Below, one piece after another: positions 5,080 to 53,736 of a DNA stretch of 64,000 bases (within the stretch, counting starts at the first letter, position 1; each line of letters begins with the position of its first letter). The notes under the pieces were generated by a model. The model was not told the origin of the DNA. It saw only the letters and a program-made list of their open reading frames with translations, and made no database searches. The translations under genes were made by a program, and so were the position numbers. The DNA is from a virus, in IMG/VR virus record IMGVR_UViG_3300043015_000560, positions 16,086 through 80,085 of that record; one strand, 5' to 3'.

Positions 5080-7925
5080 CCTCGATATCTACGATCCTGA
5101 TAACGTTCAATTGTATTAGTATTTGGCCTAGGAGTAGGTGCATTGGCTACGACAACTTTAGGTTCTTTACTAGCGCCACCACCACTATTATTTGTAACAT
5201 TGTTAATCACAGGAGCCGGTGCGTTTTGTGACGCTGGCATATTCTCTAGAGCAGTGCCTGTAGGTACAGGTTGTCCCGGAGCAGCAGTAGCTATCATTGT
5301 TCCTTGTTCTAATTGATCGGCTGACTCAAACTTGTCTTCGGGCTTGCCGAATATCCGATCGTTTTCTGATCGGAGAGTCTTCTCTAGTCCTGTTTCAGCG
5401 CTATCATCTGACAGGAAAGGGTGATCGGTGTGAGCACCTGAGTCCGGATACAGCATCTGCATAGATTTTTCCTGTAACTCTTCAGGTACATCCTGTCCGT
5501 TGATTTTAGTTACCTTGCCCATCTTTACTGTAGCTTCCACTTTACCTTTACTTGTATCAATACCCATCTCTTGAGCGATCTGTTCAACTACAGCGGTCTT
5601 ATGATCACCTTCTTTTTTTCTTCGCTCAATTTGATTTTGTCTTCTGTTAGAGGCACCACCGGCAAGTCCTTCTGCTTGTTCAGGGTTAGAGGTATCAGTG
5701 GTTTCTAGTTTGGATAAGTCTACATTAGCACCTTCTGCTTGTAGTTTTTGTATTGCCGCATCTTTGTTTTGTATGGCCTTTACAAGTCCCGCATTCTTCA
5801 TTGCTGCCTTATCATTATCAGAGTATTCATCTTCTGATTTGTCACCTAACAGTGCTTGATAATTATCTTCAGCTTGTTTCTCAATCTCTGCTCTTAACTC
5901 TGGGTTTACTTCTTCAATTTTATCTAAAGCTACTTGGGCTGCCTCATTTGATTCTGCAATCTCGCCCGGATCGACGGGTATTGCATCTGCTAAAGCCTCG
6001 CCTGCTTTACCACCTAACCAACTACCACCAAAGTATCCTAAAGCACCACCTATAATACCACCAATAGCTGTACCAACAATAGGAACAACAGAGCCAATAG
6101 CTGCACCTGCGGCCGCCCCTGCTATAGCTCCACCAGCACCACCGGCACCTGAACCAATGGCCTCACCTTTTTGTGATTGTGCTTCTTCCGCGGAGATTTC
6201 TAAATTCTCCATTTTATTTTCGGCGGACATGACACCTGTTACTGCTTCATAGGCACCCATGCCCACACCCGCAATGGCACCGCCGAAGCGGCCAATACTG
6301 CCCATGGCGCCCTTCATTACACCACCGCCGAGTAATCCTTTACTTGTTCCTTTTAAGGCCTTGCCGATTTTACCCATTCTGCTTTTAGGTTTCCGGCCGC
6401 TTTTGTTTTTACCTTTGTTTTTACCACCGAAGCCGCCAAAGAATCCACCGCCGCCATCGCTGCCACCCATACCACCGTTGGCAGCAACATCTTCTAAAAT
6501 GTCTTTGATGTCTTCTAGAAGTTCTACTTGTTTTTGACCTGTAGTCTCTTTATCTATTCCACTTTTAAATGTTCCATCACCTGGCTTAGTGCTTGTTGCT
6601 CTAGCTTGGGCTACCTTACTAGTGTTGTTATTAGTAGTATTCTCAGTAGTCTTTGTATTTGTAATCTTATTATTGTTTTCTTCTGTAGCAGAATCTAGTG
6701 CTTGACTAGTGTTATTAGATGTTTTTATAGAGTCTGTTTTTATTTTTACAGTCTCAGCTTTAATTTCTTTTGTTCCACCTTCTATAGTGTTGGTTTGAAT
6801 CTCTTTACTAGACTCTTTTTCTATAGTAGACTCTTTTTCTATAGTAGACTCTTTTTCCTTAGAAGCGCCTTTAGTTTTCTTAGACTCAGCGGGAGATTTA
6901 ACATCAACTTCATCTCCGCCAATTAACTGTAGACCCTCTGCACCAACGGCAGCTGCCATACCTTTGGCTTGGTCTTCTTTGGCAATTTCCATACGAGCAT
7001 TTTTAGCTTGCTGTGCGTCGGCGGCTTTATCGCCTGTTCCCAATACCTTAGATGCTAGGCCGCTCATTATACCACCACCGCCAGATAAGCCGCCGGTATT
7101 GGCATCACCGAATAAACGTGTTGGACTGAATGCTTGTTTTACTGCTGTTAATCCTGTAGCACCTTGATCTATATTAAGAGCTTCTTTTATTCTACTACCG
7201 GATCTTAAATCTTTTTTAACATTGTCTAAACCCAATGCCTGGTTTATCTTGTCTTTATTGTCGCCTGCTTTTGTTTCTAGTCTAGCAACTTGTTTAGATA
7301 TTTCATTTTTGGCTTTCTCTGCATCCTTACCTTTGAGGTCTTGTGCATTAGCCATAAGTTCGACAAGTTTCTTTAGCTCTGCTTGTGTTTCATCGCCTTC
7401 TTTTTCAAATATTTCTTGTAGGGTACCTGCATTGTCGCCAATATTTTTAGATAAACCTGCAGATGCTTTAGCTGCTCCAAACCCTAAGGTACTTGTATTC
7501 TCTTCCATTGCGCCAATAGTTTTACCTTTTCTAATACTATTAGCTAGTGACGCTATTCTAGATTCACTATCATCGAACCTTTCTTCAGTAGCATATTGTC
7601 CAGATGTTTCGTCTCTGAATTTTTCTCTGCCTTGCTTGTCGGTTTCCTTTCTTACTAATGTTTCACCGCCAATTTTAAGTCTACGCATTTGGTTGTTGGC
7701 ATCGCCGCGAACGGATCTAGCTCGGACATCTTTTAAGTCTTCGTTCGTCGTATCTGATAACACTTCAGTAGAGAGATTTCTTGTTTTATCATAAGACTGT
7801 ATACCCTCTGATCTAGAATCTTCTAGCGCAGATGCCGAGCCACTTTGTTTGAGCTCGTTATCCTTCATGGACTCTTCTCGCAAGTCCTTTTTACGGGTGT
7901 CTTTTAAATCGTCTCTTTCAGCCAT
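5076..7925 (-). CDS. Tail tape measure / baseplate hub protein (gp29-like)
   Basis: 949 aa; helical N-terminus, Gly/Ala-rich GAAIGSVVPIVGTAIGG membrane-like segment, PVINNVTNNS C-terminus; located after gp26/gp51. Confidence 0.75.
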   Translation of the reverse strand: MAERDDLKDTRKKDLREESMKDNELKQSGSASALEDSRSEGIQSYDKTRNLSTEVLSDTTNEDLKDVRARSVRGDANNQMRRLKIGGETLVRKETDKQGREKFRDETSGQYATEERFDDSESRIASLANSIRKGKTIGAMEENTSTLGFGAAKASAGLSKNIGDNAGTLQEIFEKEGDETQAELKKLVELMANAQDLKGKDAEKAKNEISKQVARLETKAGDNKDKINQALGLDNVKKDLRSGSRIKEALNIDQGATGLTAVKQAFSPTRLFGDANTGGLSGGGGIMSGLASKVLGTGDKAADAQQAKNARMEIAKEDQAKGMAAAVGAEGLQLIGGDEVDVKSPAESKKTKGASKEKESTIEKESTIEKESSKEIQTNTIEGGTKEIKAETVKIKTDSIKTSNNTSQALDSATEENNNKITNTKTTENTTNNNTSKVAQARATSTKPGDGTFKSGIDKETTGQKQVELLEDIKDILEDVAANGGMGGSDGGGGFFGGFGGKNKGKNKSGRKPKSRMGKIGKALKGTSKGLLGGGVMKGAMGSIGRFGGAIAGVGMGAYEAVTGVMSAENKMENLEISAEEAQSQKGEAIGSGAGGAGGAIAGAAAGAAIGSVVPIVGTAIGGIIGGALGYFGGSWLGGKAGEALADAIPVDPGEIAESNEAAQVALDKIEEVNPELRAEIEKQAEDNYQALLGDKSEDEYSDNDKAAMKNAGLVKAIQNKDAAIQKLQAEGANVDLSKLETTDTSNPEQAEGLAGGASNRRQNQIERRKKEGDHKTAVVEQIAQEMGIDTSKGKVEATVKMGKVTKINGQDVPEELQEKSMQMLYPDSGAHTDHPFLSDDSAETGLEKTLRSENDRIFGKPEDKFESADQLEQGTMIATAAPGQPVPTGTALENMPASQNAPAPVINNVTNNSGGGASKEPKVVVANAPTPRPNTNTIERYQDRRYRG
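6809..6857. repeat. 18-bp tandem repeat x2.7 (KESTIE) in tape measure gene
   Basis: TAGACTCTTTTTCTATAG repeated at 6809, 6827 and partially at 6845. Confidence 0.9.
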
Positions 7926-7930
7926 CGCTT

Positions 7931-8113
7931 TTAACCTTGTTGTTTAGACCTCTCAGCCTTTTTCTTTAAATGTGTTATTAACATAGCAACGTAAACTTCT
8001 CTTTCCCATGGCATCATATTTTCTAGTTCCGTCAAACTGTAATGATGTTCTTGCATTAACAAAAAATTAGTCTTGTAATAATTCTCAAGACTATCCTGAG
8101 AAAGAGTTAGGCG
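7931..8113 (-). CDS. gp51: gp51-like baseplate hub assembly segment, probably reached by -1 frameshift from gp26 (internal ATG at 8056)
   Basis: Missed by ORF track; reads RLTLSQDSLENYYKTNFLLMQEHHYSLTELENMMPWEREVYVAMLITHLKKKAERSKQQG*. Confidence 0.8.
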   Translation of the reverse strand, partial: RLTLSQDSLENYYKTNFLLMQEHHYSLTELENMMPWEREVYVAMLITHLKKKAERSKQQG

Positions 8114-8799
8114 AAAAAATGTTCGTATCCATTGATATTAACACTGTTCTGCCCTTCACATTTAGGACACTTGAAATCAATCGTGTGCCCGAGTAAAGGA
8201 ACATTCTCAAAAAATTCTTTAACTTTTGAAAGTGTATTTACTGGCATATTGTCTATATATTCAATTAACTCTTTATAATCTATATCCTTTGCTTCCCAAA
8301 CTTCATCTTCACTATAGATGCATTCAACGCATTCTAAGATGAGTTCGTCGTCTTGTAGATTTTCCGCTTTGCCCATTGTTTTGGCGGACGGGTATTTTAA
8401 AACAATACCGTTCTTATCGTCAATTTCAATCTTTCTATTAGCCTTTTCTTCTAGTCCAACAAGTTTGAAATCGTTCAAGTTTACCTGCCATGGCAAATTA
8501 GCAGAACAATGTCCACAAATAAGAGTGAACTCTTGTAACTCACTTACTGACTTAGATCTAAGTTGTAAGAAGATCCACTGTAAATCAAACATAGGAATCT
8601 CTTCCACATCCAATTCGCCAAAGGAACAGTTACTTACAACCTGTTGACAAGCTGCCACCATTTCAGAGGCATCTTCAGCCTCGCTAGCAAGTGTTAATAT
8701 TTTTTCTTCTTTTACAAGAAAAGGCCTAAATTTCATCTCTTTTTTAGATGAAGGTATTTCCAACTTAAATGTTGGCGTTTCAATTGTGGGTAATCCCAT
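8107..8799 (-). CDS. gp26: Baseplate hub assembly protein gp26-like
   Basis: MGLPTIETP...FRPFLVKEEKIL...FDLQWIFLQLRSKSV, two CxxC pairs, ends GYEHFFA. Confidence 0.9.
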   Translation of the reverse strand: MGLPTIETPTFKLEIPSSKKEMKFRPFLVKEEKILTLASEAEDASEMVAACQQVVSNCSFGELDVEEIPMFDLQWIFLQLRSKSVSELQEFTLICGHCSANLPWQVNLNDFKLVGLEEKANRKIEIDDKNGIVLKYPSAKTMGKAENLQDDELILECVECIYSEDEVWEAKDIDYKELIEYIDNMPVNTLSKVKEFFENVPLLGHTIDFKCPKCEGQNSVNINGYEHFFA

Positions 8800-8821
8800 T
8801 ATATTCTCCTAATAAATAAAA

Positions 8822-9352
8822 TCAAATTCGCTCCCAATACGTGGAAGCCATTGTTATTGAACACCTAATTGCTGATGTGTTTGCCGATGATACGGGAATC
8901 AAACTCAAAAGTTTAGGCATTGTTTCATAAAATTTCCATCCAGCTAATACTGAATCGTCCACAGCCAAAGAGTATATAGATATTGATCCGTATATATCTT
9001 CTGGATATGAAGTTTCTTTAGACACAGGATCAGAGCAAAGAAAAGCCCAGTTTTCAAACGCTGTTCTAATGCCCCAGTTTTGGTCTGCTAAGAAAGTGAA
9101 CACCGCTTCTGCACCTAAGAACTCTAAGTTTTGTGTTCTATACTCTGTCCAAGCACCAATTCTAAAAGGCAGGTTTGTTGCAACCAATCCAGGTATTTGT
9201 GCTTCTTCACATAATATTGAAGTTGTTCTAGCGACGTCAGGTGGTAAGGCAAGACTGCCAGGAAAGTTGACAACCACCTCAAACCTATCGGAACGAGGAG
9301 TATGTGAACTTCTAACTGTAGCTAGAAAATTACCAAAATTATTTTGTGCCAT
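8822..9352 (-). CDS. gp54: Baseplate tail-tube initiator, gp54-like (gp19 fold)
   Basis: RSDRFEV..., CEEAQIPG, RTAFENW tube-fold motifs; synteny. Confidence 0.65.
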   Translation of the reverse strand: MAQNNFGNFLATVRSSHTPRSDRFEVVVNFPGSLALPPDVARTTSILCEEAQIPGLVATNLPFRIGAWTEYRTQNLEFLGAEAVFTFLADQNWGIRTAFENWAFLCSDPVSKETSYPEDIYGSISIYSLAVDDSVLAGWKFYETMPKLLSLIPVSSANTSAIRCSITMASTYWERI

Positions 9353-9903
9353 TATAGTAGCTCCCTACTGTCTCTCCAAACCTCGGCATTGTCTGCACCT
9401 TGGAAGTCTGCCAGCGGAAGGAAGATTGCCGGTTTCCAATGATCTGGATTGATTTTTAAAAATTGTGACTTGACCCCATCTATACGATATCGCTTAATAC
9501 ACGCTTTAATTCCTGGAAATTTTTGTATTATGCCCCAACTAGTTGATGTGAACTTTCCGTCTTTAGAAATGTTTAATAGCTTTGCGAATAAATCGGCTCT
9601 AAGCATAGGGGGTAGGTAATGTAAGTTGATGCCGTAGAAACCACCTTTAGTATTTTCTACGGGTATACACAAAGGGAATCTATCCCAATACGGGAGTCGG
9701 TCTTTGTGTTTAGCATCATATAAGAACATATAGAGGCCACTATTAACTTCAAGAGAGTTTTTTAGTTCTCCCAAGTCAGAGCGTCTAGCATCTACAGGTG
9801 AATTAATGCCGCTAGCTAGCTTACGAACAGCTGTCATATACCATTGATATGATCTGTCTTTGTTTCCTGCTTGTCCAGATAACTGGTGAAATACGTCTTT
9901 CAT
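9352..9903 (-). CDS. gp2: DNA end protector gp2
   Basis: YMFLYDAKHKDRLPYWDRFPL...GINLHYLPP..R...CIKRY...W..AIFLP. Confidence 0.92.
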   Translation of the reverse strand: MKDVFHQLSGQAGNKDRSYQWYMTAVRKLASGINSPVDARRSDLGELKNSLEVNSGLYMFLYDAKHKDRLPYWDRFPLCIPVENTKGGFYGINLHYLPPMLRADLFAKLLNISKDGKFTSTSWGIIQKFPGIKACIKRYRIDGVKSQFLKINPDHWKPAIFLPLADFQGADNAEVWRDSRELL

Positions 9904-9908
9904 AAACG

Positions 9909-9916
9909 TATTTATA
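9909..9916 (-). promoter_or_regulatory. T4 late promoter for the gp2-gp54-gp26-tape measure operon
   Basis: TATAAATA on the minus strand, 5 nt before the gp2 ATG. Confidence 0.8.
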
Positions 9917-10349
9917 AGGGTAAGCCTAGTTCCTTTTCAGTTATTATCATAAATTCCCACCCTCTGTCTAAACAAAACTCTGTAGCAGTTTCCCATTTAG
10001 CTAGATTAACACCGTATGTCATAACCTCATTAATAAATCTTTTGGTTTTACGTTTAGGTATTACGGGTTCCTTTGTGAATCTATAAGGCTTAACTTCGAT
10101 TAAATATTTTTTAGATTCAGTCTTTACAAAGAAGTCTGGAAAATATCTGTGTATCTTTTTATCCAGAGGCGATCTATAAGGTATTACAATTTCTTCAGAT
10201 CCCCAAGCAAGCACATCTGTATTAGTATCACACCAATTCATAAACTTTAACTCATAACTAGATCTGTATATAATCTCCATAGAGTTGCCAACGTATTTCT
10301 CAGGATTGTTACAAACAAACCTGCCCTTATAAACATTCTTAGAATACAT
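9912..10349 (-). CDS. gp4: Head completion nuclease gp4
   Basis: NPEKYVG...YRSSYELKFMNWCD...WGSEE..IPY..P...HRYFPDF...IEVKP...NLAKW...IITE. Confidence 0.93.
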   Translation of the reverse strand: MYSKNVYKGRFVCNNPEKYVGNSMEIIYRSSYELKFMNWCDTNTDVLAWGSEEIVIPYRSPLDKKIHRYFPDFFVKTESKKYLIEVKPYRFTKEPVIPKRKTKRFINEVMTYGVNLAKWETATEFCLDRGWEFMIITEKELGLPL

Positions 10350-10612
10350 TACCATTCCTCTATCATAGGTTTTAGTTTTTTGGTGTGTAAATCTTCTAAC
10401 ATTTTAACAATGGGTTGCCCGTCGGTTAGTAGAAATAAATCCATATCTTCTTTTGTCTGTGTTACAAATGTCATTCTGATTCTCACAGGATCTGTTTGAT
10501 CCGGGAAAAATTCTATATCATCAGTAAACTGTGCCGTCTTTAAGACATCTTCTATGACATTAAAATCAAGAGCAAGGTTGTCTCTGATAAAGCTTAATCG
10601 CCAAGTGTACAC
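10349..10612 (-). CDS. Hypothetical protein
   Basis: 87-aa ORF translationally coupled to neighbours; GAGAGGA SD before GTG. Confidence 0.6.
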   Translation of the reverse strand: MYTWRLSFIRDNLALDFNVIEDVLKTAQFTDDIEFFPDQTDPVRIRMTFVTQTKEDMDLFLLTDGQPIVKMLEDLHTKKLKPMIEEW

Positions 10613-11907
10613 AAATATCCTCTCAATTGATCCATATTAACTTTGGTTTCTGTAGTAAAATCTTTCTTGTTTAATGTCGTAATAGTTTTAAATATATTTG
10701 TATTTATCCTATCTGTATTGTAGCTAACAGTAGGCTCCCATAGAACTAAGTGTAAGTCTTCTCCTACAATGTCAAACTCTCCAGCATAATGTTTACTTAC
10801 AAAATTATCTAAAACGTGTTTTTTATCTCTACCCATATGTATCCAGGTGTTTCCTTTTTTATTTAATTGATCGCCTAACAATCTTTTATTAGGCCATAGT
10901 TCGCAGTTAACAACTACTCTGTCATCTACAAGTTCCATGGTATAAAAGTCATCTGGTTGACAACCTAAACTGCTCTTTGTCCAATCACTATCTTTTGTAA
11001 CATGATTGACTAGAAGTGGAATACCGGTGTCGATAGAACCGAAGTGAGACATAAATTCAATATTATTTTCCTCACACAATCCTACAAAATAATCTGGCAC
11101 TGTAAATCCACTCATGTTAATTAATAAGGTTGTATCTAATTTGGGTATTGCTTTTAAGAATATATCCATACACCGCATATTGATCATCATCATTTTAGTT
11201 GGTTGCCATTTAACTATTTCATCTGCAAACCAACCTGAAATATGTTCAACTGTCATTGGATTCATTACAATGTTTCTGTGATTGTCAGATGCCATTAGGC
11301 TAGGAAACAAATGAGTTAATATGCTACTAGCGTGGTGCATATTTTTACTGTGAACAACTTTATCATCTTTTACAAACTTGAACACATCTATATTTCTTTT
11401 GGATATTGTATAAACCTCATTCTGCGTAAACAGCACTGGCTTAGAATCACTTGTTGTGCCTGAGGTCGAGCCTAATAGATAAGGAGTATGTAATTCGTTA
11501 AATTTATCTTCACATTCTTCATAATAATTTAAAATATCGTCTTCGTGTAAAACATTCTCACTATAACGCTCTACCATAATGTGGTGAATAGGATGAGATT
11601 TTAACCAATCACATTCTACTGTAAACTTAACGGGTCCAAACAAACCTAACTTTGTTTTGTGTATTGTTTGTGGGTTTACAGGGAAATCTAATATGAAAAG
11701 GATCAATCCTAATTCAGCGGCTGCAAAAGACAACGCAACTTGATTAACGTTAACTTCCATAATTGATATAGCAAGTTTATCGCCTTTCTCAGCGTTATAC
11801 TTATGTTTTAAGAGGTGTTTCCAGCGATTTGTTAGACTAATAATATCAGATTTAGTGTATCCATCATAATCAAGCGAATCATTAATAATATTTGTTGTGA
11901 GCATCAA
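10594..11907 (-). CDS. Adenylate-forming (ANL / AMP-binding) enzyme-like protein
   Basis: STSGTTSDSKPV P-loop, HFGSIDTG (YGxTE-like), LGD...MGR, and C-terminal TKVNMDQLR (A10 Lys-like). Confidence 0.7.
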   Translation of the reverse strand: MMLTTNIINDSLDYDGYTKSDIISLTNRWKHLLKHKYNAEKGDKLAISIMEVNVNQVALSFAAAELGLILFILDFPVNPQTIHKTKLGLFGPVKFTVECDWLKSHPIHHIMVERYSENVLHEDDILNYYEECEDKFNELHTPYLLGSTSGTTSDSKPVLFTQNEVYTISKRNIDVFKFVKDDKVVHSKNMHHASSILTHLFPSLMASDNHRNIVMNPMTVEHISGWFADEIVKWQPTKMMMINMRCMDIFLKAIPKLDTTLLINMSGFTVPDYFVGLCEENNIEFMSHFGSIDTGIPLLVNHVTKDSDWTKSSLGCQPDDFYTMELVDDRVVVNCELWPNKRLLGDQLNKKGNTWIHMGRDKKHVLDNFVSKHYAGEFDIVGEDLHLVLWEPTVSYNTDRINTNIFKTITTLNKKDFTTETKVNMDQLRGYLCTLGD

Positions 11908-11946: not shown

Positions 11947-11954
11947 TATTTATA
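11947..11954 (-). promoter_or_regulatory. T4 late promoter (ANL enzyme-gp4 operon)
   Basis: TATAAATA on the minus strand, 40 nt upstream of ORF 11907. Confidence 0.65.
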
Positions 11955-13102
11955 TGAGTTTTTTCTCATTCTTTGAAAGCGACGACGATGGGGTCGTTAC
12001 CGAAGATAGCCGTCAGGATGCTAGGACCGCAGCTCGTAACGAACAAAGAGCTAGAACCTCTGCGGTTGTTAGCTCACCGACAACAGCGTCATATCCTTCT
12101 GATGCTAGTGCAGGTAGACAACCACATAGTGTTGTATTCCATATTAATGCCAGATCTAATTCAGCTGCAGGAGCAGCAGCCCAATCTGCTAATGCAGGCA
12201 CGGCGGCTTGGAATAATGCACAAGGGGCTTTACAAAGTCAACAGGCAAGTGAAAACAGAGCATCCGCAGATGCTAGCGATACAGTAATGGCAGGAGCCTC
12301 GGCTGTAGCGGCCGGCGCTTTAACGGCAGCCATAGGGCCAAAGATGACAGGGGACAACGCATCTAAACTAGCAGTGCCACTTCTTGCTACAGGAGCGGCA
12401 GTTGTTGCTGGAGCACTTGGTGGATCTTTAACAGGTTCGAATAATACAGTTAGACTATTAGGATCAATTCAACTACATATCTCACAAGCACCGGTTACAG
12501 CATATAGTGCTAACTGGGACGAAGAAACATTAGGCACAGCAGCAGGCTTGTTAGCAAGTGGTAGAGCTGGGTTGTCAGATATTCTTGGCGGGGCTGAGTA
12601 TCTTTCTCGTGGTGTTATTGGCGCGGCAGCTAATATTCCAAAAGAGCTAGGTATCGGCGATCAAAACATTGCAGGAGCAATTGAGGCAACATCTAAGAAA
12701 GTAGCAAACCCATACAAAGAACAATTGTTTAAATCAATGGGATTCAGAAAGTTCTCTTTTGAATATAAGTTTATGCCAAAGAATGCAAGCGAATACAATA
12801 CAGTTCAAGGCATACTTAAACAGTTTAGATTACATATGCACCCAGACAAAGGACAAGACGGCTTTTTCCTAATTTATCCTTCAGAGTTTAATATTGAATA
12901 TCGCTATAAGGGCGGAGTAAACGGACACATTGCTAAAATTGCATCCTGTGTTTTAACCGATATGAAAATTACATACGGTTCTTCTGATGGAACATTTAAT
13001 ACTATTAAAGGCACGGGTGGCGCGCCAAACGAAATTAATATGTTGTTGTCCTTCACAGAACTAGAAACATTAACAACAGATAGAATCGAGGACGGGCTAT
13101 AA
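11954..13102 (+). CDS. gp48: Baseplate tail tube cap gp48
   Basis: NPYKEQLFKSMGFRKFSFEYKFMPKN..E...YPSEFNIEY...CVLTDM...LSFTELE. Confidence 0.9.
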   Translation: MSFFSFFESDDDGVVTEDSRQDARTAARNEQRARTSAVVSSPTTASYPSDASAGRQPHSVVFHINARSNSAAGAAAQSANAGTAAWNNAQGALQSQQASENRASADASDTVMAGASAVAAGALTAAIGPKMTGDNASKLAVPLLATGAAVVAGALGGSLTGSNNTVRLLGSIQLHISQAPVTAYSANWDEETLGTAAGLLASGRAGLSDILGGAEYLSRGVIGAAANIPKELGIGDQNIAGAIEATSKKVANPYKEQLFKSMGFRKFSFEYKFMPKNASEYNTVQGILKQFRLHMHPDKGQDGFFLIYPSEFNIEYRYKGGVNGHIAKIASCVLTDMKITYGSSDGTFNTIKGTGGAPNEINMLLSFTELETLTTDRIEDGL

Positions 13103-53220: not shown

Positions 53221-53736
53221 ATGAATATAACAGAATTTAAAGCCAGACTTGGCGCAGGCGGAGCAAGACCTAATCAGTTTAGAGTTTTGCTAGGCTTTCC
53301 GGGTTATGTCTCAGGCGTAGATCCTTCCTACAGTTTGTTGGTATCAGGAGCAGCATTGCCTGCTTCTACTGTAAACCCAGCAATCATCCAGTATAGAGGT
53401 CGTGAAGTTAAATTAGCAGGCGAAAGGATTTTTGATCCTTGGACCATTACAATTGTTAATGATACTGAACAGTCTCTAAGAAAAGCTTTTGAAGCATGGA
53501 TGGAAGGGATGAACGGTAAAGGAGATAACACGGGAGAGCTTAACCCGAATCAATACCAAGCTGATATTGTTGTAGAACACTTAGATAGAAATGACGACGT
53601 ATTACCAGGTGGAACATACACTTTGAGAAACGCATTTCCAATTCAGATGTCTGAAATTGCATTACAGTATGCACAGAACGACATCATTGAAGAATTTACG
53701 GTGACTTTCCAATACCAGCATTACGACGTAGCTTAA
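53221..53736 (+). CDS. gp19: Tail tube protein gp19
   Basis: GGARPNQFRV...RGREVKLAGERIFDPWTITIVND...IEEFTVTFQY. Confidence 0.96.
   Translation: MNITEFKARLGAGGARPNQFRVLLGFPGYVSGVDPSYSLLVSGAALPASTVNPAIIQYRGREVKLAGERIFDPWTITIVNDTEQSLRKAFEAWMEGMNGKGDNTGELNPNQYQADIVVEHLDRNDDVLPGGTYTLRNAFPIQMSEIALQYAQNDIIEEFTVTFQYQHYDVA

Follow-up and report, generated by a model that had tools for sequence, protein, structure and literature searches.

The -1 frameshift that gives rise to gpG and gpGT in phage lambda is conserved among long-tailed phages (Levin, Hendrix and Casjens, 1993, Xu, Hendrix and Duda, 2004, for a summary, see PMC5009743). In Pseudomonas phage Adele and the Vandenendeviridae/Andersonviridae, the tail chaperone locus contains a GTTTTT slip motif that is invariant (PMC12846349). 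For phage T4, gp51 is needed for tail assembly but absent from the virion, and gp26 has been classed as a chaperone of hub assembly (PMC3004832). [quoted passage not shown] (Vladimirov, Gautam and Davidson, Virology 2022, 566:9-15, doi 10.1016/j.virol.2021.11.003), a study that has since been cited for poly-T slippery sequences in the TAC-N genes of T4-like phages (PMC12846349) and, in the description of PRFect, for some T4-like phages in which a short gene and a long, fused gene take the place of frameshifting (PMC10885494). No other report on gp26/gp51 frameshifting or on frameshifting in cyanophages was found in the literature. Going by these citations of Vladimirov et al. (2022), the core idea of the present analysis is already published, and we describe here a further, unannotated example.

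This example comes from an uncultured marine T4-like phage, IMG/VR record IMGVR_UViG_3300043015_000560, which is 80 kb long and has an estimated completeness of only 48%. We analysed positions 16,086-80,085 of the record, a stretch of 64,000 nt hereafter called the window, and the features discussed below are listed in Table 1. We found no published description of this phage or of the 949-aa tape-measure-like protein encoded next to the locus. Judging from sequence, we consider it likely that its gp26-like gene is a tail assembly chaperone gene, which is decoded in two ways to yield a 230-aa major and a 289-aa minor product, probably by tandem -1 slippage.

Table 1. Features of the chaperone locus and its neighbourhood (positions refer to the window).
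Feature	Position	Strand	Remarks
Short chaperone form (gp26-like, TAC-N)	8107..8799	minus	230-aa ORF, PF12322
Slippery heptamer T TTT TTC	8113..8119	minus	X XXY YYZ phase of the gp26-like frame
0-frame stop TAA	8107..8109	minus	one codon past the heptamer
-1 extension, gp51-like C-terminal tail of predicted TAC-NC	7931..8113	minus	60 codons + stop
Short ORF of the kind predicted by gene callers, 43 aa	7931..8062	minus	TTG 8062 / ATG 8056; truncated reading of the extension
Local hairpin	8082..8102	minus	9 bp, loop TAG, 10 nt after the heptamer
Tape-measure-like gene, 949 aa	5076..7925	minus	weak PHROG matches, position, size, composition
Tail-tube-like paralogue, 176 aa	8825..9352	minus	phrog_45 'tail tube', E 1.2e-20
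DNA end protector gp2	9355-9903		T4-type neighbour
Head completion gp4	9915-10355		T4-type neighbour
gp48 tube cap	11954-13099	opposite to the chaperone gene	T4-type neighbour
gp19-like tube gene	53221-53736		

The 230-aa ORF ends with the codons CAT (8121-8119) TTT TTC (8115-8113) GCC TAA (8109-8107), and its heptamer has the phase required of a canonical bacterial -1 cassette. From 8113 on, the -1 frame, starting with RLTLSQDSLENYYKTNF..., contains 60 sense codons before a TAA at 7933-7931, and the predicted fusion has 229 + 60 = 289 residues, of which residues 1-229 are common to both forms. No ATG occurs in the -1 frame before codon 20 (8056-8054), and no purine-rich Shine-Dalgarno motif was found in the 20 nt preceding this codon. 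Re-reading of the minus strand bore out all coordinates and sequence statements of the original prediction, including the 60 open codons from the heptamer to the stop and a gp51-like sequence that begins 19 codons before an ATG lacking a Shine-Dalgarno motif. A second run of six Ts (AAT TTT TTG, 8063-8068, minus strand) is present inside the extension, 45 nt past the first run. It is located at a conserved Asn-Phe motif and slippage there would lead to a nearby stop, and this run probably represents just the codons of the conserved NF.

Most ribosomes would read CAT TTT TTC GCC and terminate at the following stop, releasing the short form. A minority would slip back by one base on T TTT TTC. 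The most likely route is a tandem -1 shift of two tRNA-Phe, both of which could re-pair perfectly on UUU UUU. The shifted ribosomes would then read CGC CTA ACT and onwards, 60 more codons in total, to give the 289-aa form with a tail of the T4 gp51 type. If they behave like lambda gpG/gpGT and T4 gp26/gp51, the two forms would act in hub and tape-measure assembly and would not be expected to stay in the virion. The tail of the long form would presumably contact a binding partner; a complex prediction of the 60-aa extension with the gp19-like tail tube protein gave a score of 0.00, which is informative neither way.

The products of the two frames can be related to both T4 proteins. The 230-aa protein matches the Pfam family PF12322 (T4_baseplate) over residues 9-230 with an E value of 4.8e-53 and 180.5 bits (cut-off 24.5), and it covers profile positions 5-232 of the 282 positions of phrog_150 'baseplate hub'. 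The 60-aa peptide of the -1 frame had no match in a Pfam search; among the PHROG families it matches phrog_634 'baseplate hub assembly catalyst' (gp51) with an E value of 5e-27 and, in addition, positions 235-280 of phrog_150. As both frames match parts of one and the same profile, some family members must carry both parts in a single chain. T4 gp26 (208 aa) consists of the PF12322 domain alone, and in T4 gp51 (249 aa) a tail is appended to such a domain (residues 1-201, E 3.9e-52); the two are therefore paralogues, one being the short and the other the long form. It is with the C-terminal 49 residues of T4 gp51 that the -1 peptide aligns. From these sequence matches, the single gene in the window would very probably yield the same short/long pair as T4 gp26/gp51, by a -1 shift at the heptamer. 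The T4-like chaperones of Vladimirov et al. (2022), going by the citations of that study, belong to the same PF12322 family and share the short/long pair and the C-terminal tail.

The junction between the two frames was compared across 92 loci. They are the window itself, three IMG/VR contigs nearly identical to it, eight phage isolates (P-SSM2, ACG-2014i, S-CAM3, S-SRM01, KVP40, Cr30, pf16 and Paraglaciecola GD1) and another 80 IMG/VR contigs, which were retrieved by means of an alignment of the -1 peptide. These loci form 85 clusters at 85% nucleotide identity and 63 at 75%, and the 85 representatives were used for frame statistics. In 92/92 loci, from the cyanophages to KVP40, Cr30 and pf16, gp26 has an in-phase T TTT TTN at its 3' end (N being C in 65, T in 17, A in 9 and G in 1), and the gp51-like sequence is read in -1 relative to the gp26 frame. 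Neither a variable frame offset nor a missing slippery site, which the original prediction had named as evidence against itself, occurred in any of them, and this supports its proposal that 230-aa and ~289-aa chaperones are made by a -1 frameshift, still as a prediction from sequence. The codon before the run is NNT in all loci, though it encodes Asp, Ser, Asn, His or Ala, for which the background use of T-ending codons in the same genes is 0.33-0.75, and the first Phe codon is always TTT. T4 gp26 retains the two Phe residues, but there they are spelled GAG TTC TTT and the T run is broken; therefore, the run in the one-gene phages is selected at the nucleotide level and not via the protein. 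The 0-frame stop lies 0 or 1 codon past the heptamer in 88/92 loci. Over the 55 codons past the heptamer, the -1 frame is free of stops in 85/85 representatives, compared to an average of about six stops in the other two frames, and is thus open far beyond chance. In a tblastn search, the -1 peptide matched 537 phage records, 527 of them over at least 80% of its length, and most of the matches listed begin at residue 1 of the peptide and overlap the annotated gp26 gene.

Sequencing and replication errors often occur at homopolymer runs, and in principle the arrangement could have arisen by chance, by misassembly or by a frameshift mutation that recently split a fused gene. This is virtually inconceivable given the 92-locus survey, which refutes it: the same phase and heptamer recur in independent isolates and metagenomes. 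Moreover, the stretch is present in 14 DNA runs and 6 RNA-library runs, and contigs from four of the RNA-library runs have the same six Ts.

It is also conceivable that no recoding takes place and that the small ORF is a separate gp51 gene, which is translated from TTG 8062 or ATG 8056, or by reinitiation past the gp26 stop, into a free peptide of 41-43 aa. The database records of many phages annotate the small ORF in this way, and in KVP40, Cr30 and GD1 the gp26 stop has an ATG overlapping it or directly next to it (TAATG, TGATG, ATGA), which makes coupling possible. However, in 69/85 representatives the first ATG lies at codon 18 or later, inside the conserved peptide; only 11/85 have an ATG, GTG or TTG no more than six codons away from the slip site, in no case with a Shine-Dalgarno motif. 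The 18 residues preceding the common Met are conserved from the heptamer on, with a mean pairwise identity among the representatives of 56% compared to 38% for the last 20 residues of gp26, and the nucleotide similarity between the window and cyanophages starts exactly at 8120/8119. The T4 counterpart of this tail forms one polypeptide with a PF12322 domain. Some records annotate no gp51 gene for want of a start: in the RefSeq entry of ACG-2014i (NC_027132.1, 5505-5687) the gp51-like stretch is wholly unannotated, 'intergenic', because no start codon exists there, and other records have mini-genes with differing starts. We therefore regard a separate gp51 gene as highly improbable. The suggestion that the short 'gp51' ORF is a frameshift exon is strengthened by these results, and coding conservation upstream of the ATG, for which it had proposed a comparison among T4-like phages, indeed starts at the heptamer, ahead of any start codon.

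With regard to stimulatory signals, the hairpin named in the original prediction is present at its place, 10 nt past the heptamer, but it is not conserved among the 85 representatives. With 9 bp and a 3-nt loop, it is predicted as the fold of lowest energy (-9.6 kcal/mol, z -1.73), and 12/200 shuffled sequences fold as well, that is, it is better than chance only marginally. Across the representatives its pairs form in 53% of cells as compared to 26-47% in slid controls, all nine of the nine pairs form only in the window's own cluster, and RNAalifold returned no consensus structure over the 85 sequences, the mean MFE z being -0.85. Based on the pairing and the RNAalifold result, we rejected the hairpin as a family signal; it is possibly a local stimulator. 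A conserved stem-loop or pseudoknot 5-10 nt after the heptamer, as expected for a canonical cassette, was not found among the 85 representatives. U UUU UUC without a stimulator is not known to be a high-efficiency site in bacteria. Upstream of the heptamer, at a distance of 7-10 nt, an SD-like purine-rich tetramer is found in 66/85 representatives, the window itself being among those without it. Purine-rich synonymous codon choice is modestly enriched 9-14 nt upstream (p 0.016 and 0.004). The SD-like stretch overlaps a conserved Gly codon and is also present in T4 gp26.

The same absence of a conserved RNA structure speaks in favour of transcriptional slippage, by which RNA polymerase would add one U on the T6 run and the U7 fraction of the mRNA would be translated normally into an identical HFF-RLTLSQ... 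fusion. The conserved element is a homopolymer run, lengthened by an invariant preceding T, and the title of Vladimirov et al. (2022) was also counted in favour of this mechanism, though PMC10885494 takes the 'other mechanism' of that study to be the two separate genes of T4. The run consists of only six Ts. It also ends in C in 65/92 loci, even though TTT is the commoner Phe codon in the same genes (72%), so selection does not act towards the longest possible run. Six Ts are short for slippage by bacterial RNA polymerase, and known programmed sites have about nine. Contigs from four metatranscriptome runs span the site with the genomic T6 and without an inserted or deleted base; contigs cannot reveal minor variants or prove transcription, and this observation is uninformative for a minor mRNA species. 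Overall, we consider transcriptional slippage, which would give the same protein, unlikely, and infer that a long form is probably made as the minor product, more likely by ribosomal slippage. A somewhat broader proposal, which we regard as unlikely, is that the conserved U6 acts without a conserved RNA structure and might represent, instead of a classical ribosomal cassette, a site of polymerase slippage or of structure-independent slippage whose direction varies between lineages. If this were true, T4-like phages would set their chaperone ratio by a mechanism other than that of lambda.

Returning to the proposed -1 slippage in a single gene, T4 differs in possessing two genes, which are divergently transcribed and lack the T run. 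Two PF12322 copies are encoded by T4 and one each by P-SSM2, KVP40, Cr30 and pf16, all complete genomes; this record has one copy, and a second PF12322 gene, as in the T4-type arrangement, was not found in its 80 kb, which represent 48% of the estimated genome. A full-length, in-frame gp51 is present in ~1375 records, mostly of enterobacterial, Acinetobacter and Aeromonas T4 relatives, and in Acinetobacter phage Berthold this protein is labelled 'tape measure protein assembly chaperone'. An unrooted tree built from 17 PF12322 domains separates the gp51 N-terminal domains of the two-gene phages (one clade, 99/98) from the recoding genes (a second clade, 94/97). This tree fits one old duplication, the direction of which cannot be read from an unrooted tree. 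Cronobacter phage GAP161 (NC_019398.1, 62173-63466), a two-gene phage, carries gp51 and gp26 in tandem on the same strand (gp54-gp51-gp26-gp25), unlike the divergent pair of T4, and this arrangement looks like the footprint of a tandem duplication.

The proposed analogy with lambda G/GT holds in several respects. The gene is located directly before a tape measure gene, here a tape-measure-like gene, it has an overlapping -1 frame near its 3' end with a slippery site conserved in 92/92 loci, and T4 gp26 and gp51 represent the corresponding short and long forms. The N-terminal domain of the predicted model may, in addition, resemble the HK97 chaperone. In contrast, no sequence similarity to lambda gpG is seen, the heptamer is U UUU UUC rather than G GGA AAG, the short form is twice as large and has an extra Cys-rich domain, and the extension comprises only 60 residues. 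The Adele-type locus resembles the present one in its T-run slip motif, which is likewise placed at the 3' end of TAC-N, in a -1 frame that stays open through 'intergenic' DNA in all genomes, and in a downstream ORF wrongly annotated as a hypothetical gene of its own (PMC12846349), but the phage lineage and the protein family are different.

The possible resemblance to HK97 was seen in an AlphaFold model of the short form, which was built from 43 sequences and has a mean pLDDT of 92.9. In an exhaustive structural comparison of residues 1-90 with 48,161 chains, the top three, all of which we class with proteins of the tail-assembly-chaperone type, were 3fgx (uncharacterised, from Bacillus stearothermophilus; Z 7.4, 85 aligned residues), 2ob9 (tail assembly chaperone of HK97; Z 7.1, rmsd 5.0 over 84 aligned residues) and 3klu (YqbN from Bacillus; Z 5.8). 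The Z scores are all below 8 and therefore middling, and we take the predicted similarity of the N-terminal 90 residues to the HK97 tail assembly chaperone as support rather than proof. A Foldseek search of the model against the PDB gave no match at E <= 0.001, and a profile search of PDB sequences returned nothing meaningful. The gp26-like protein contains three CxxC pairs (95/98, 157/160 and 211/214); among the 43 relatives C58 is invariant and C95 nearly so. The C-terminal two thirds of the model gave weak matches to the zinc-ribbon proteins ZitP and LysW (Z 3.0-3.2). A metal-binding domain would be unusual in a tail assembly chaperone.

The tape-measure-like ORF starts 5 nt past the stop of the extension. 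Its 949-aa product weakly matches PHROG families of tape measures and tail lysins (phrog_794, 3e-7; phrog_1047, 2e-14) and has a Gly/Ala-rich hydrophobic core with a long segment at about residues 590-640; it had no match in a Pfam search and no similarity to T4 gp29 by BLASTP. Based on its position, size, composition and the weak PHROG matches, we refer to this gene as tape-measure-like. The order of genes in T4 is 51-27-28-29, whereas no gp27 or gp28 homologue is present here between the chaperone gene and the tape-measure-like gene. The tail-tube-like paralogue directly upstream of the gp26-like gene is also found at this place in KVP40, pf16 and S-SRM01. Between the gp4 and gp48 homologues, two minus-strand ORFs of 437 aa (10597-11907) and 87 aa (10352-10612) are present, which had no PHROG match at E <= 0.001. 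Near-identical DNA was found in the 14 metagenome DNA runs mentioned above, which come from estuary water and seawater, and the phage lineage is common in estuarine water. Contigs ~98-99% identical to positions 7600-9000 are present in salt-marsh and marine metatranscriptome libraries of three studies.

Taken together, the biology described here is confirmatory rather than new, and the value of the finding is practical and lies in annotation. At this site, public records annotate a start-less 'gp51' mini-gene or nothing at all. As a rule for annotation, a PF12322 gene that ends in NNT TTT TTN followed by a stop could be read as a recoding gene, and this could correct several hundred phage records, given the 537 found by tblastn. 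For the family, the tail-chaperone recoding rule of long-tailed phages would extend to large marine and environmental groups of T4-like phages, and the two genes of T4 would represent a derived or alternative solution.
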